From an uncultured Candidatus Binatia bacterium (lineage in GTDB: Bacteria > Desulfobacterota > Binatia > UBA9968 > JAJDTQ01), in the NCBI GenBank assembly GCA_965242525.1, contig OZ251459.1, positions 1,952,001 through 2,016,000 of the forward strand: a stretch of DNA of 64,000 nucleotides, given 5' to 3'. Positions within the stretch are counted from its first letter, which is position 1; every line of letters starts with the position of its first letter. The notes under the pieces were generated by a model. It searched no databases. It was not told the origin of the DNA and was given only the letters and a program-made list of their open reading frames with translations. The translations under genes and the position numbers were made by a program. Shown piece by piece: positions 8,884 to 19,993 of this stretch.

Positions 8884-10279
8884 TCAATTGAATTCGCGCA
8901 CGTCCACGACCCGGCCTTCGAGGGCCGCGGCCGCCACCATGGCGGGACTCATCAACAGGGTGCGCCCGCCCGGGCTCCCCTGGCGGCCGATGAAGTTGCG
9001 GTTCGAGGAAGAGGCGCACACTTCCCGGCCGCTGAGCTTGTCCGGGTTCATGGCCAGGCACATGGAGCAGCCCGCTTCCCTCCACTGGAAGCCGGCTTCG
9101 GTGAACACCCGGTGCAGCCCCGCGGCCTCGGCCTGTTTCTTCACGTCCGCGGACCCGGGCACCACCAGGGCCCTCACCCCCGCGGACACCTTCCTGCCTT
9201 CCGCAACCCGGGCCGCGGCCACCAAGTCCGAGAACCGCGAGTTCGTGCAGGAACCGATGAACGCCACGTCGATGGGGGTGCCGAGGATCGGCGCTCCGGG
9301 CTCCCAGCCCATGTGCTCGTAGGCCTTCTCCACCGTCTTGGGGTCTTCCATCTCTTCGGGCCGCGGCAGGTTCTCCCGCACTCCCACCGCCTGCCCGGGG
9401 TTGATCCCCCAGGTGACCGTGGGTTCGATGGCCGAGCCATCCAGGTCCACCACGTGGTCGTAGGAGGCGTCCGCGTCCGACGCCATGGAGCGCCAGTAGG
9501 CCACCGCCCGGTCGAAGGCGTCGCCTTTGGGAGCGAACGGCCGTCCGAGCAGGTAGTCGAAGGTGGTCTTGTCGGGGTTCACGTAACCCACCAGCGCCCC
9601 CCCCTCGATGCTCATGTTGCAGACGGTCATGCGTTCGTCCATGTTCATGCGGTCCAGCGCTTCCCCCCCGTACTCGTAGGCGAACCCCTTGCCGCCGCCG
9701 ACCCCGAGGCGCCGGATGATGGTCAGGATCACGTCCTTGGCGTGCACCCCCAGGGGGAGACGGCCGTTGACGTTGATACGCCACCTTGAGCCGGTCCATG
9801 GCCAGGGTCTGGGTGGCGAGCACGTCCCGGACCTGGGTCGTGCCGATGCCGAAGGCCAGGGTCCCGAAGGCCCCGTGGGTGCTGGTGTGGCTGTCGCCGC
9901 AGGCCAGGGTCATCCCCGGCTGGGTGAGGCCGAGCTGCGGGCCGATGACGTGGACGATGCCCTGCCGGCTGCTCTCCAGGCCGTAGAACTCGATGCCGAA
10001 GTCCCGGACGTTCTTCTCCAGGGCGGCCATCATGGCTTCGGCCTGCTCGTCGAGGAAGGGCCGGGAGCGCGCGTCCGTGGGGACGATGTGGTCCGCGGTG
10101 GCGAAGGTCCGCCGGGGATAGGCGATGGAAAGCCCGCGTTCCCGCAGCATGTCGAAGGCCTGCGGGGTGGTCACCTCGTGGACCAGGTGCAACCCGATGA
10201 AGAGCTGGGTCTGTCCGGTGGGGAGCGTGGCCACCGAGTGGGCGTCCCACACCTTGTCATAGAGGGTGCGTTCGGACAT
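8884..10279 (-). pseudogene. leuC: 3-isopropylmalate dehydratase large subunit, frameshifted near 9781 (pseudogene or assembly error)
   Basis: N-terminal part ([28 protein letters not shown]) and C-terminal part ([26 protein letters not shown]) are in different frames. Confidence 0.9.
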
Positions 10280-10301: not shown

Positions 10302-10330
10302 ATCATAGCCGCGGACCGGCGCGGTTTCAA
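10302..10330 (-). promoter_or_regulatory. sigma70-like promoter for leuCD, TTGAAA-N17-TATGAT
   Basis: Sequence match followed by an AAGGAG RBS. Confidence 0.6.
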
Positions 10331-12154: not shown

Positions 12155-13246
12155 TCACCCGCGGCCCGCCGCGACCTCCCGCCGCACGAGGGAGCCCATC
12201 TCCCGGCACCCCACCGCCGAATCCTTGCCTTCGGCGATGTCCGGCGTGCGATGGCCGGCCTCGAGCACCCGCTCCACCGCCTGCTCGATGCAGTCCGCGG
12301 CGTCGCCCCGGTCGAAGGAATGGCGCAGCATGAGCGCCACGGTCAGGATGGCGGCCAGGGGATTGGCCTGGTCCTGCCCGGCGATGTCCGGGGCGCTGCC
12401 GTGCACCGGTTCGTACATGCCCACCGTGCCGCCGAGGCTGGCCGACGGCAGCATGCCGATGGAGCCCGTCAGCATGGCGGCCTCGTCGCTCAGGATGTCG
12501 CCGAACATGTTGGTGGTCACGATCACGTCGAACTGCTTCGGGTCCCGGATGAGCTGCATGGCGCAGTTGTCCACCAGCACGTGCTCGAGCTCCACGTCTC
12601 CGTAGCCCTCCTCACGGTGCACCCGGGTCACGACCTTGCGCCACAACTCCGTGGACTCCAGCACGTTGGCCTTGTCCACCGAGGTCACCCGGCGGCGCCG
12701 CCTGCGCGCGGCGTCGAAGGCCACCCTGGCGATCCTCTCGATCTCCGGGGTGGAATAGACCAGGGTGTTGACGCCGCGTTCGGTCCCGTCCGGCCCGGAG
12801 GTGACCCCCTTGGGCTGCCCGAAGTAGATGCCGCCGGTCAGCTCCCGGACCACCACCAGGTCGGTCCCCTGCACCACCTCGGGCTTGAGGGTGGAGGCCT
12901 GCGCCAGGGGCCCGAACAGCTTCACCGGCCGCAGGTTGGCGAACAGGCCCAACTCTTGGCGCAAGGCGAGCAGCGCCCGCTCGGGGCGGATGGAATAGTC
13001 CAGTCCGTCCCACTTGGGTCCGCCCATGGCGCCCAGGACCACCGCGTCGCCGGACTTGGCCAACCCGAGGACCTCGTCGGTCAGGGGCTTCCCGTGGACG
13101 TCGATGGAGGCTCCCCCCACCAACCCTTCCTCCACTTCCACGGCGAAGCCGAAGACCTCCGCGGCCTGCCGCAGCACCGCCAGGGCTTCCGCCGCCACTT
13201 CCGGGCCGATGCCGTCGCCCGGAAGCACCGTAACCTTGTGGCTCAT
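12155..13246 (-). CDS. leuB: 3-isopropylmalate dehydrogenase
   Basis: [31 protein letters not shown]. Confidence 0.97.
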
Positions 13247-14799
13247 GGCCCCCCCTCCACCGGGACTTGGCGGTGACGCTTGCGGTACTCCAGGCGATTC
13301 AGGGCGTTCACGTACGCCAGGGCGCTCGCCATGATGATGTCGGTGTGGGAACCCTTCCCGGTGATCTGGACGTCCTTGTCCTGGAGCATGCACGATACCT
13401 CGCCCTGGGCGTCGGTGCCGCCGGTGACGCTCGACACCGAATAGCGCCGCAGCCTCGCATGGCTGCCGGAAAGCCGGGCGATGGCTTTATAGCACGCATC
13501 CACCACCCCGTCACCCGTGTCGTGGGCCACCCGCTCGTTGCCGTCCACCCGCATCCGCACCGTGGCCGACGGAACCGCGGACGAGCTCGACGCGATGTTC
13601 ATATAGACCAGCTCGTAGCGGTCCGGCTGGCTCGGTATCCGCAGCACCTCGTCGGCCACCAGGGCCTCGATGTCCTCGTCGAAGACCTCCTTCTTCTTGT
13701 CGGCGAGCTGCTTGAACCGCTCGAAGGCCCGGTTCACCTCGTCCTTGTTGAGCGTGAAGCCCAAATGCTTGAGCCTTTCGCCGAAGGCGTGCCGGCCGGA
13801 GTGCTTGCCCATGACCAGCCGGTTGCCGCTGATGCCGATGGTCTCCGGCTTCATGATCTCGTAGGTGAGCTTCTGCTTCAGCACGCCGTCCTGGTGGATC
13901 CCCGCCTCGTGGGCGAAGGCGTTGTCCCCCACGATGGGCTTGTTCAAGGGGACCACGATGCCGGTGACCTGGGACAGCAGGCGCGACGTGGGGTAGATCT
14001 GCTCGGTGCGGACGTTGGTGTCCAGGTGGAAGACCGACCGCCGCGTCTTCAACGCCATGACCACCTCTTCCAGCGACGTGTTGCCGGCCCGCTCGCCGAT
14101 GCCGTTCACCGTGCACTCCACCTGGCGCACGCCGTTGACCACTGCGGACAGGGAGTTGGCCACGGCCAGGCCCAGGTCGTTGTGGCAGTGGGCGCTCCAG
14201 GTGACCTCGTCCGAACCCTCCACGCGGTCGATCAGATACCGCACCAGCTCCCCGAACTCGGAGGGTATGGCGTAGCCCGTGGTGTCCGGGATGTTGAGGG
14301 TCCTGGCGCCGGCCTTGACGGCCTCGCCGAAGACCTGCGCCAGGAAGTCCGGGTCGCTGCGCGAAGCGTCCTCGGCCGAGAACTCCACGTAGTCCAGGTG
14401 CTTCCGGGCGTACCGGACGGCCGCCCCCACCGCGTCCAGCACCTCGCTGCGGCCCATCCGGAGCTTGTGCTTCAGGTGGATGTCCGAGGTGGCGATGAAG
14501 GTGTGGAGGCCGGGCCTGCGCGCCCCTTCCACCGCCTTGACGGCCTTCCGGATGTCGCCCTGCTGGGCCCTCGCAAGGCTCAGGACGATGGGCCGCCGGA
14601 CGGCCTTGCACACCTGCGCCACCGATTCGAAGTCCCCCGGCGACGAAGCGGCGAAGCCCGCCTCGATGACGTCCACCCCGAGCTTCTCCAGTTGCCGCGC
14701 GACGAGGACCTTCTCGTCGATGTTCATGCTGGCCCCGGGCGACTGCTCGCCGTCCCTGAGGGTGGTATCGAAGATCTTTACGACGTCCTTGGCGCCCAT
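13243..14799 (-). CDS. leuA: 2-isopropylmalate synthase
   Basis: [29 protein letters not shown]-terminal regulatory domain. Confidence 0.97.
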
Positions 14800-14812
14800 G
14801 GTCTCCCTCCTC

Positions 14813-14846
14813 AAAAAAAAACTCCCGCGGAGGTCCGGCGGGAGTT
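14813..14846 (-). terminator. Intrinsic terminator directly upstream of the leuA RBS (probable attenuator)
   Basis: mRNA AACUCCCGC-cggaccucc-GCGGGAGUU; the final UU of the stem begins a run of 9 U. Confidence 0.85.
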
Positions 14847-14876
14847 CGAGTCATGCGAGCTGGTTCTGCTTCCTGG

Positions 14877-15713
14877 TCAGGCCTGGGCGAGCGCCCGCTC
14901 TTCCCTCCGTCGCTCCCGCACGGCGAGCAACCATAGTAAGGGACCCGATAAGGTGTACAGCAATAGCGCCGAGAACAACACGATCTGCCACATGGCGATG
15001 GCCAGTATAACGACTGCCAACGCGGAAAGCAACAACCAAATGGTGCTGCGCTTCTTGAAGTGGTGCTGCTTCAGGCTGGAGTAGCGGAAGTTGCTGACCA
15101 TCAGGCCTGCCAGCGCGCACGCCGCCGCCATGAACACCAAGGGCTTGGCGTCCGCGTCCTCGAGCCCCAGCATGGACCAGATGAAGACGAAGGCGGCGAC
15201 CATGGCCGCGGCCGCGGGGATGGGCAAGCCGGTGAAGTAGCTCTTCTCCGCCGACAGCGTCTGGACGTTGAAACGCGCCAGGCGCAAGGCCCCGCAAACG
15301 GCGAACAGGGCGGCCCCGATACCGCCCCAGGCGCCCCAGGGGGCCAGCGCGAAGACGTACGCGAGCACCGCGGGCGCGACGCCGAACGAGACCACGTCGG
15401 CCAGCGAATCGAACTCGACCCCGAACCGGCTGGCGGTATGGGTCAGCCTGGCCACCGCGCCGTCCACCCCGTCCAGCAGGTTCGCGGCCAAAATCAACAG
15501 GGCCGCCCGGTGGTGCTCGCCGTCGAAGGCGAAGAGGACGGCGAAGACGCCGCAGAAGAGGTTGCCCGCGGTGAACAGGCTGGGGAGGAGGAAGATGCCC
15601 CGGCGCAGCCGGTGGGCCGGATTGCGGCGCTTCCCGCGGCTCCGCCGGATCTTTCCCCGGGGGATCAGGCGGACCTTCCGCAACCGCGCGTCCTGGTTTC
15701 CGGAACGTTCCAT
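14877..15713 (-). CDS. pssA: CDP-diacylglycerol--serine O-phosphatidyltransferase
   Basis: LPSLFT, DGVDGAVAR...FG..FDSLAD..SFGVAP, RLARFN, GLPIP. Confidence 0.95.
   Translation of the reverse strand: MERSGNQDARLRKVRLIPRGKIRRSRGKRRNPAHRLRRGIFLLPSLFTAGNLFCGVFAVLFAFDGEHHRAALLILAANLLDGVDGAVARLTHTASRFGVEFDSLADVVSFGVAPAVLAYVFALAPWGAWGGIGAALFAVCGALRLARFNVQTLSAEKSYFTGLPIPAAAAMVAAFVFIWSMLGLEDADAKPLVFMAAACALAGLMVSNFRYSSLKQHHFKKRSTIWLLLSALAVVILAIAMWQIVLFSALLLYTLSGPLLWLLAVRERRREERALAQA
15004..15032 (-). promoter_or_regulatory. sigma70-like promoter inside pssA, TTGCTT-N17-TATACT
   Basis: Exact 17-nt spacing, formed from AT-rich codons atypical for this window. Confidence 0.65.
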
Positions 15714-15720
15714 GGCCCCG

Positions 15721-16320
15721 TCAGAGCCTCGCCACGACGGTTTCCCCGCTGCGCACCCGCTGGCCGGGACGCACCTCCACCGCGGCCCCGGGGGGCAGGC
15801 GCAGGTCCACGCGGGAGCCGAACATGATCAGGCCGAAGCGCTCGCCCTTCCGCAACGGGTCTCCCGGGCCCACGTCGCAAACGATGCGGCGGGCGAGGAA
15901 GCCCGCGATCTGCACCACCTGGAGGGTCTTTCCCGAATCCTCCACGAACTCGACCACGTTGCGCTCGTTCTCGTCGGACGCCTTGCCCCGGTTGGCGGCG
16001 AAGAAACGGCCCGGACGGTAGCGGACGTCCTGCACCCGTCCGTTCATGGGGGCCCGGTTGACGTGTACGTCCAGGGGCGAGAGGAAGATGCTGAGCCTGC
16101 GGCCCTCGTCGCTCACCTCCACGACCTTGCCGTCCGCCGGCGACACCACCACCCCGTCCCCGTCCGGGGCGGTCCGCTCCGGGTCCCGGAAGAACCCCGC
16201 AAGGGCCAACGCCGCGGCCGCCAAGGCAACGCCGGCCGCGAGCCAGCCCGCGGCCAGAGCCGCGGCCGCCAGGGCCGACGCAACGAATACGAACCGGTAG
16301 CCTTCCCTTGCGATCCGGAT
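15721..16320 (-). CDS. psd: Phosphatidylserine decarboxylase proenzyme (probable ATC start)
   Basis: FFRDPER, SPADG, HVNRAP, FGSRVD cleavage motif; GGGGAGG RBS 5 nt before ATC. Confidence 0.9.
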   Translation of the reverse strand: MRIAREGYRFVFVASALAAAALAAGWLAAGVALAAAALALAGFFRDPERTAPDGDGVVVSPADGKVVEVSDEGRRLSIFLSPLDVHVNRAPMNGRVQDVRYRPGRFFAANRGKASDENERNVVEFVEDSGKTLQVVQIAGFLARRIVCDVGPGDPLRKGERFGLIMFGSRVDLRLPPGAAVEVRPGQRVRSGETVVARL

Positions 16321-19697: not shown

Positions 19698-19925
19698 TCA
19701 GCTCGCCGGCTTGTACTTGCCGAGGATCTCCATGATCTTGTCCTTGCCCACGAGCTTCCGCTTCTGGATGCGTTTCTTCTCCATCTCCTCTTCGGGAGAC
19801 AGGTAACCCTTGTCGTGCAAGTCCACCAACTGCTTCTCGTACTCCAGGTGCTCTTCGTAGTATTTGCGCAATTCCGGGTCCTTATCCAAGACAGAGGCAA
19901 TCATCCGCTCCTCTCTCTCCTCCAT
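19698..19925 (-). CDS. DUF465 (YdcH-like) small coiled-coil protein
   Basis: 75 aa, EH..YE..L, K.RKL.GKD.I motif; CAGGAGG RBS. Confidence 0.8.
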   Translation of the reverse strand: MEEREERMIASVLDKDPELRKYYEEHLEYEKQLVDLHDKGYLSPEEEMEKKRIQKRKLVGKDKIMEILGKYKPAS

Positions 19926-19964: not shown

Positions 19965-19993
19965 AATCTATCCAACGCCCGCTCCTTTGTCAA
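19965..19993 (-). promoter_or_regulatory. sigma70-like promoter for the ilv operon, TTGACA-N17-TAGATT
   Basis: -35 box overlaps the tsaB stop codon. Confidence 0.65.

Follow-up and report, generated by a model that had tools for sequence, protein, structure and literature searches.

A candidate leucine attenuator of leuA with its leader inside the pssA reading frame in Candidatus Binatia

Introduction

What purpose is served by a strong transcription terminator placed directly before leuA, and by a promoter-like sequence that points toward it from within the coding region of the preceding gene? The question is raised by the pssA-leuA junction in a 64,000-nucleotide stretch of DNA (contig OZ251459.1, positions 1,952,001 to 2,016,000, assembly GCA_965242525.1; hereafter the window) from an uncultured Candidatus Binatia bacterium. 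Here pssA, encoding CDP-diacylglycerol--serine O-phosphatidyltransferase, is followed on the minus strand by leuA, the gene for 2-isopropylmalate synthase. A preliminary description of the junction had proposed that the C-terminus of PssA doubles as a leucine-sensing leader. On balance, we regard it as fairly probable that the junction encodes a ribosome-mediated transcription attenuator of leuA that senses leucine and uses the in-frame C-terminal codons of PssA as its leader; the attenuator probably also governs leuB, the next gene on the same strand. Comparison with related genomes favors the earlier proposal through the terminator, the promoter, the rare leucine codons, the co-occurrence of these elements and the leaders of sister families. 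The antiterminator, on the other hand, had to be re-assigned.

The scheme that we favor would work as follows. Transcripts would come from two sources, the promoter inside pssA (15032-15004), whose mRNA would start about 3 nt before the ATG at 14993, and read-through of the long ilvBNC-psd-pssA message. Ribosomes would translate the 38 final codons of pssA either from this nested ATG or on their way through full-length pssA. When charged tRNA-Leu is scarce, the ribosome would stall at the TTA, CTA and TTG codons (14978-14925), before codon -16 (pssA codons are numbered backwards from the stop, from -1 upward). A segment of Arg codons (14923-14901) would then be free to pair with the 5' arm of the terminator (14846-14836), and polymerase would enter leuA. 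With ample leucine, the ribosome would reach the stop codon, 32 nt before the hairpin, and would sit between the two strands of the antiterminator. The antiterminator being blocked, the terminator would form and transcription would stop at the U9 run.

Results

Junctions compared

Junctions were taken from 39 genomes of the same order, comprising 25 of the window's genus plus members of two further families, each with a PssA match. Further junctions came from 24 genomes of other families of the class, seven of the wider phylum and nine metagenome-assembled genome (MAG) records. In the class, 116 genomes have a PssA match, and the 24 outside the order are a sample of these. Alignment A2 contains the 45 distinct hairpin-bearing junctions, across which PssA identity drops under 50% (BLAST). 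Codon shares were calculated from 2469 long open reading frames (ORFs) of the genome with high G+C content at third codon positions (GC3), a heuristic gene set. A pattern scan of public contigs gave, among the matches listed (at least 117 stretches), nine with both pssA and leuA as judged by tblastn; the remaining stretches look like unrelated terminators.

The terminator before leuA

The hairpin arms, AACTCCCGC and GCGGGAGTT, lie at 14846-14820 and run into nine T residues at 14821-14813 (all features are listed in Table 1). The hairpin begins 32 nt past the pssA stop and ends 13 nt short of the leuA ATG, with GAGGAGG in between. Folded alone (43 nt), it has a free energy of -19.2 kcal/mol (z -4.0), and 0/200 shuffled sequences fold as well. 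A generic hairpin scan with a loop limit of 3-8 nt did not report the terminator, because the outer stem encloses 9 nt and exceeds that limit.

Conservation of this element is extensive. The two genes are neighbors in 30/30 loci, with 77 nt between them in the window. The hairpin and its T run occur in 39/39 genomes of the order with a PssA match, in 4/24 loci from other families of the class, and in distinct MAG loci. The distance from the pssA stop to the CTCCCG core is 27-35 nt (30 loci). The stem core, CUCCCG/CGGGAG, is identical in 45/45 junctions, and 95% of the stem cells in the alignment are paired. Such invariance would be unusual in a plain terminator; a 5' arm obliged to pair with coding sequence as well would predict it. 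Under the proposed model, the stem would be held constant because its 5' arm pairs both with the 3' arm and with the Arg-Arg-Arg-Glu codons of pssA. We note that in locus L150 (G040) the conserved hairpin is separated from leuA by about 300 nt, as compared with about 15-40 nt elsewhere.

The leuA hairpin is one of 43 strong terminators in the 4.2-Mb genome (T run of at least 6, hairpin of -13 kcal/mol or better), four of which sit between co-directional genes. The other three follow genes for CarD-like, solute-binding and cupin-like proteins, as judged by our own reading of the translations. Nothing comparable to the pssA arrangement is seen at these three sites, and the idea that embedded attenuators are a general habit of this genome was rejected.

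Rare leucine codons in the pssA tail

The last 38 codons of pssA include 10 for leucine (26%), which read TTG, CTA, TTG, CTG, TTA, TTA, CTA, TTG, CTC and CTC. This is an unusual selection for a genome with 67% G+C, in which the shares among Leu codons are 0.0021 for TTA, 0.0097 for CTA, 0.092 for TTG, 0.50 for CTG and 0.33 for CTC. Four or more TTA/CTA codons within 20 codons are found in just 6/2469 long ORFs, pssA among them. When the 25 genomes of the genus are pooled, TTA/CTA make up 109/245 Leu codons of the tail versus 9/687 in the rest of pssA, and leuA is devoid of them in 23/25 genomes. GC3 at codons other than Leu is 0.80 in the tail versus 0.87 upstream in the same pool.

The rare codons are conserved as a class. 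Positions -29, -28 and -24 alternate among TTA, CTA and TTG, and the common CTG/CTC are found there in 0/24, 0/25 and 0/25 genomes, respectively; codon -24, for example, is TTA in seven genomes and CTA in 18. The intervening codons stay with the preferred G/C-ending forms (TAC 23/25, ACC 21/25, TCG 24/25, CCC 22/25). This pattern, with TTA, CTA and TTG interchanging, speaks against both a fixed nucleotide motif and a general enrichment in A+T, and it agrees with selection for Leu codons that are read slowly. The genome carries five tRNA-Leu genes, one per anticodon, such that TTA and CTA are each served by a single tRNA gene.

A promoter and a nested reading frame inside pssA

The sigma-70-like promoter predicted within pssA would initiate transcription near 14999-14996. 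Its pattern, TTGNNN-17-TANNNT, is present at the homologous place in 36/45 loci from eight genera, with synonymous sites kept. Within the genus, the codons TTG (-51), CTT (-50) and ATA (-43) each occur in 25/25 genomes, against genome shares of 0.09, 0.07 and 0.07. Across loci, the -10 box persists through amino-acid changes, appearing as TATACT, TAAATT, TACACT, TATGGT, TAAACT or TACCCT. The minimal pattern TTG-N20-TA-N3-T is found seven times in the window versus 2.4 expected; two of the other matches precede the ilv cluster and leuC.

The rare codons co-occur with the promoter: two to six TTA/CTA codons are present in the downstream segment of each of the 36 loci that have it. Among the nine hairpin loci without a promoter, five have none, one has a single TTA/CTA codon and two, which belong to one genus, have two or three.

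The nested ORF opens with an ATG located 10 nt past the -10 box in 25/25 genomes of the genus, and its codons are also read by ribosomes on full-length pssA. The PssA motif AEPQ, found in most class-level and some phylum-level loci, reads AMWQ in the genus (14985-14993 in the window), and it is this change that creates the ATG at that spacing. The order's other families have their first in-frame ATG 22 nt past the -10 box, where it follows a GGAG. The translation start at ATG 14993 is placed by spacing alone and should be taken as putative.

What the preliminary description reported for the window holds up on closer inspection. The intrinsic terminator that it placed directly before the leuA ribosome-binding site is found there and is kept in 45/45 loci. 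All ten Leu codons that it counted in the last 38 are present, seven of them TTG, CTA or TTA and nine ahead of the antiterminator arm. The TTGCTT-N17-TATACT promoter exists as described, 10 nt before an in-frame ATG, and its pattern recurs in 36/45 loci. The comparison of relatives that it suggested shows the hairpin at the pssA-leuA junction throughout the order, together with retention of the promoter (36/45 loci) and of the rare Leu codons (109/245 versus 9/687).

The antiterminator

Two registers can be drawn for the 5' strand of the antiterminator. Register 1, the CCG-U-GCGGGAG-CGA pairing of the preliminary description, is strong in the window and in its nearest relative, L002. In the window, the duplex with the terminator 5' arm has an energy of -21.5 kcal/mol in one calculation and of -20.4 kcal/mol in another, the latter equaled by 7/500 dinucleotide shuffles, and the minimum free energy (MFE) structure of the RNA cut before the 3' arm contains GCGGGAG:CUCCCGC. 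This part of the claim stands for these two genomes. Codon -12 (14913-14915) is GAG in 2/25 genomes (the window and L002), AAG in 22/25 and ACG in 1/25, so that 22 of the 23 other genus members carry AAG and one carries ACG; it is the neighboring register that is conserved. We note that the Lys-to-Glu change (AAG to GAG), seen in the window and its nearest relative only, makes a perfect GCGGGAG complement to the terminator arm.

Register 2 would be formed by CGA CGG AGG GAA. Its synonymous sites are nearly fixed in the genus (CGA 24/25, CGG 25/25, AGG 25/25), even though CGA and AGG account for 0.065 and 0.080 of Arg codons genome-wide. Over the 45 loci, 73.8% of the register 2 cells are paired, and pair 33-112 covaries, being GC in 29, AU in 10, GU in six and unpaired in none. 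Register 2 follows the last rare Leu codon at a distance of more than 20 nt, a geometry that fits antitermination by a stalled ribosome. Partners at the homologous place are also found outside the genus. In f3 the partner CGACGGGAG is matched by 1/500 (L152) and 0/500 (L155) shuffles, and in f83 the partner GCCAGCGGG is matched by 29/500 (L168) and 16/500 (L169). The antiterminator is thus strong in L152 and L155 and moderate in L168 and L169, as well as in L026 (30/500). In L152, L155, L168, L169, L026 and the window, the site is homologous, at -47 to -28 from the stop.

Free-standing leaders in sister families

Outside the order, 15 loci from nine other families of the class (L157-L160, L171-L175, L180, L182-L185 and L187) have leucine leaders of classical appearance. 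Their pssA-leuA spacers measure 200-330 nt, with the exception of L185 (1128 nt by BLAST coordinates), and contain TTGAC(A/T)-17/18-TA promoters. In 10/15 the final pssA codons contain the -35 box, and the TA of the -10 box is often part of the pssA stop. The leaders are separate ORFs of 22-38 codons with LLL runs, such as MTETARLLGALLGGLLLTSPPGARARV, and the motif LLL[ST]xPP is frequent; the LLL runs are mostly encoded by CTG, CTC and CTT. Hairpins with T runs precede leuA in these spacers (by eye; one was folded), and their stems are unlike CTCCCG/CGGGAG. In 11/15 the leader ATG lies 9-10 nt past the -10 box, compared with 10 nt in the window. The pssA tail of 10/15 sister loci has no TTA/CTA among its 6-10 Leu codons, and these ten include 8/9 of the loci with leuA GC3 of at least 0.80.

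To judge from these sequences, it appears to be the rule in this class that leuA is under leucine attenuation, with a promoter that overlaps the end of pssA. The leaders of the sister families share with the window the gene neighborhood, the promoter at the pssA 3' end, the spacing of the ATG, a Leu-rich ORF, and a hairpin with a T run before leuA. They differ in that their leader is a separate ORF and their pssA tail uses common Leu codons, whereas the window's order lacks a separate leader ORF and has the promoter, the ATG and the rare Leu codons inside pssA. The chances seem to us evenly balanced that the order has replaced the free-standing leader, which still exists in the sister families, by elements within the pssA frame, namely a promoter, an ATG that is nearly leaderless and a set of rare Leu codons, while leaving the enzyme intact. 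The last transmembrane helix would then serve as an amino-acid sensor, and the coding constraint would freeze the stem.

Discussion

Points against a leucine attenuator

A number of observations weigh against the attenuator, and most of them concern the antiterminator, which is its weak point. In the three typical members of the genus tested (L004, L012 and L020), the best pairing reaches -12.9 to -13.6 kcal/mol, and 175-238/500 shuffles do as well. An energy of about -13 kcal/mol falls in the same range as the trp antiterminator of E. coli; the genus values therefore do not exclude function, yet energy alone lends no support. L186 has the hairpin, and its upstream partner is at chance (387/500 shuffles as good). 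An A.G mismatch is present in register 2 in 31/45 loci, and in the genus it breaks the helix. Moreover, RNAalifold applied to 30 loci pairs the CGGAGGG segment with CUUUCCG, which overlaps the -35 box, instead of with the terminator arm. We keep this pairing as a possible "segment 1" of the long transcript; it is impossible in the short one. For genus RNA cut before the 3' arm, alifold returns merely a 4-bp contact to the 5' arm, and the whole 206-nt region folds no better than shuffles (z 0.19).

The promoter and the start codon are likewise imperfect. The -35 box TTGCTT agrees with TTGACA at just 3/6 positions, and because of this a stricter promoter scan did not report the site inside pssA. 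With a predicted 5' leader of about 3 nt, the start is not truly leaderless, nor is it preceded by a Shine-Dalgarno sequence. L151, L152 and L154, from one genus of the order, as well as the MAG loci L086 and L132, have the hairpin, no internal promoter pattern and zero or one TTA/CTA codon. These loci keep the terminator and, in L152, a strong antiterminator (1/500 shuffles as good) in the absence of the promoter and the rare codons, and the module is therefore not obligatory; they may constitute a second sub-type that is fed by pssA translation only. Taken from related genomes, the counts of covariation and co-occurrence amount to few independent events. Finally, the point at which transcription starts, initiation at the nested ATG, ribosome stalling, the switch between structures and any response to leucine are our inferences from sequence features.

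Alternative explanations

The terminator and promoter are genuine sequence features, and they could act constitutively, the hairpin ending or thinning the ilvBNC-psd-pssA transcript to set a fixed ratio of upstream to leuA expression and the promoter adding a basal level of leuA, with no sensing of leucine. The rare Leu codons would then have another use, such as pacing the membrane insertion of the last helix or keeping the 5' end of the short mRNA open. Chance-level antiterminator pairing in most of the genus agrees with such an arrangement, as do the one genus (three genomes) that has the terminator without the rare codons or promoter, and the ordinary look of the three other strong co-directional terminators in the genome. 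Nevertheless, we consider it unlikely. A promoter ahead of a strong terminator (U9, -19 kcal/mol) located 13 nt from the leuA start would be of use chiefly where read-through is under control. The choice of A/T-ending codons is peculiar to leucine, with G/C-ending neighbors, and the absence of TTA/CTA from the same helix in most sister lineages with separate leaders (8/9 of those with high GC3) speaks against membrane insertion as its purpose. Nor would a constitutive arrangement explain why CGA CGG AGG and the stem are invariant at synonymous sites.

A conditional terminator might instead be read by a trans-acting factor, such as an RNA-binding protein, a small RNA, an uncharged tRNA or a metabolite acting through a metabolite-binding RNA, rather than by the position of a ribosome. 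The factor could recognize the CUCCCG/CGGGAG stem, the GGA-containing loop or the flanks. Binding of the CsrA type to GGA motifs is also conceivable. What speaks for this is that the stem sequence itself, beyond its pairing, is identical in 45/45 junctions, that the spacer motif AGCTTGC is present in 21/25 genus loci, and that the hairpin flanks are able to pair with the leuA ribosome-binding site. We find it quite improbable, however, because the leader is shorter than 200 nt and largely protein-coding, no candidate factor has emerged, and the Leu-specific rare codons and their link to the promoter would have no explanation. Rfam searches gave no match to a T-box or any other family, either in 14000-16000 (E ≤10) or in nine related loci that include sister leaders (zero matches at E ≤0.1). 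The best hits in 14000-16000, with E values of 1.1-4, are far under the gathering scores, and a T-box or other Rfam RNA was rejected as a candidate.

Finally, the outcome at the hairpin could be decided by how closely ribosomes that finish full-length pssA follow RNA polymerase, with neither a nested promoter nor a Leu-specific stall. The precedent is the rph-pyrE operon of E. coli, which senses UTP through coupling of transcription and translation (Bonekamp et al. 1984; Jensen 1993; via PMC2784333). There, according to PMC2784333, the terminating ribosome blocks the hairpin, and shifting the stop nearer to the hairpin loop increases expression. Coupling of this kind suits f83 (L168-L170), f80 (L186), three g6 genomes, L086 and L132, all of which have the hairpin and no recognizable internal promoter, such that transcription from upstream must feed the terminator. 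For the window we hold it to be very improbable. At 27-35 nt before the stem, the stop is too distant for the hairpin to be covered by a terminating ribosome, in contrast to pyrE (PMC2784333). Neither the nested ATG 10 nt past the -10 box nor a promoter kept in 36 loci would be accounted for. The leucine attenuator remains our preferred reading of the junction.

Genomic context and other features of the locus

Table 1. Features of the pssA-leuA junction (window coordinates)
Feature	Position	Strand	Details
pssA	14877..15713	-	ORF, 278 codons + stop; stop 14879-14877
Putative sigma-70-like promoter inside pssA	15004..15032	-	-35 TTGCTT 15032-15027, 17-nt spacer, -10 TATACT 15009-15004
Nested in-frame ORF, proposed leader peptide	14877..14993	-	ATG 14993-14991 + 37 codons + stop, MWQIVLFSALLLYTLSGPLLWLLAVRERRREERALAQA
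Cluster of nine Leu codons	14925..14978	-	codons -33 to -16, seven of them TTG/CTA/TTA
Candidate antiterminator 5' strand, register 1	14910..14923	-	CCG-U-GCGGGAG-CGA; strong only in window and L002
Candidate antiterminator 5' strand, register 2	14901..14912	-	CGA CGG AGG GAA; pairs with UCCC-G-CCG of terminator 5' arm
Intrinsic terminator	14813..14846	-	stem AACUCCCGC/GCGGGAGUU, inner 2-bp extension, U9
leuA, including ribosome-binding site (RBS)	13243..14812	-	RBS GAGGAGGGAG 14812-14803; ATG 14799-14797

The gene order on the minus strand of the window is a small ORF, ilvB (19685-17910), ilvN, ilvC, psd, pssA, leuA, leuB, asd, truA and leuC. The gene assignments are firm at the junction. PssA matches TIGR00473 with 144.1 bits (cut-off 107), covering residues 48-211, and LeuA matches NF002086 with 766.8 bits (cut-off 532) and TIGR00973 with 698.6 bits (cut-off 598.7), all in NCBIfam. 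Citramalate synthase was rejected as an identity for LeuA, the TIGR00977 score of 208 bits being far under the cut-off of 450. The psd and leuB products likewise score above their NCBIfam cut-offs. The GGAGG of the leuA ribosome-binding site lies at 14810-14806.

Several candidates in the spacer between pssA and leuA were considered and set aside. Its sole ATG (14854) is out of frame, overruns leuA and is not kept in relatives, which leaves no separate leader ORF in the 77 nt. The motif AGCTTGC(A/T)TGA, counted by eye in 21/25 genus loci, stands in the window at 14851-14866, where the sequence reads AGCTCGCATGA, and at the same place in L004-L025. A sigma-54 promoter in this motif was dismissed on the misfit of its -24 element, judged by eye. 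In the folded RNA of the junction, the motif is able to pair with GCCGUGCGG in the coding region, and the CCUCA just 5' of it could pair with the UGAGG of leuA.

Elsewhere in the cluster, the sequence TTGACA-17-TAGATT (19965-19993, minus strand) precedes a small ORF, acidic and basic and about 74 codons long (MEEREERMIASVLDKD..., 19700-19924, minus strand), which lies 5' of ilvB. Upstream of ilvB we saw no Ile/Val/Leu leader peptide and no terminator. A second promoter-like sequence, TTGAAA-17-TATGAT, lies between truA and leuC (10302-10330, minus strand), which suggests that leuC has its own promoter and a short leader. A leucine leader before leuC was rejected, as the region offers the promoter-like site and short leader and no attenuator was seen there. 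The leuC matches (8890-10273, minus strand) are split over two reading frames that meet near 9784 (model residues 2-164 and 166-466), which may reflect a frameshift, a misassembly or a gene that is split.

Relation to known attenuators and significance

In E. coli and Salmonella, the leu attenuator depends on the leader peptide leuL (Rfam Leu_leader), on which a stalled ribosome brings about read-through. The attenuator proposed here would follow the same logic, with a promoter-like site, a short Leu-rich ORF with rare codons that would be translated, a candidate antiterminator that would exclude the terminator hairpin, and a U tract ahead of leuA. It departs from leuL in that the leader would consist of the last 38 codons of a gene for a functional membrane enzyme and the promoter lies within that gene. 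The four consecutive Leu codons of leuL have no equivalent; leucine is scattered along a transmembrane helix and made rare through TTA/CTA. No sequence-family match is obtained, and the stop codon lies well 3' of the antiterminator strand.

That a full-length enzyme gene can play the "leader" of an attenuator is known from rph-pyrE, where UTP and not an amino acid is sensed. As described in PMC2784333, rph-pyrE has an intercistronic terminator after a full-length enzyme gene whose translated 3' end takes the role of the leader, as we propose for pssA. The two differ in that the nearness of the rph stop to the hairpin is critical, whereas the stop here lies 27-35 nt from the stem, stalling at Leu codons and an antiterminator are proposed, and a nested promoter and ATG are present. 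Leader-peptide attenuators with Leu codons have been predicted by comparative genomics for leuA and ilvB of Actinobacteria (PMC1262725). Those leaders are apparently separate ORFs in intergenic regions, unlike the leader embedded in pssA. Our literature search, with supplementary attenuator lists outside its scope, found no description of a leader that senses an amino acid from within the reading frame of an enzyme. Screens for attenuators usually take their search region no further than the border of the upstream gene, explicitly so in PMC2965389, and would overlook a leader hidden inside a gene.

If the proposed attenuator is real, a promoter, a start codon, the sensing codons and one strand of an RNA switch are overlaid on the reading frame of an enzyme. 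This would account for the invariant stem of the terminator and for the clustering of very rare codons at one place in a genome of high G+C content. The element is compact, about 220 nt, and is a potential leucine-responsive switch. Furthermore, the coexistence of free-standing and embedded leaders would provide a natural comparison of classical and embedded leucine sensing inside one bacterial class.

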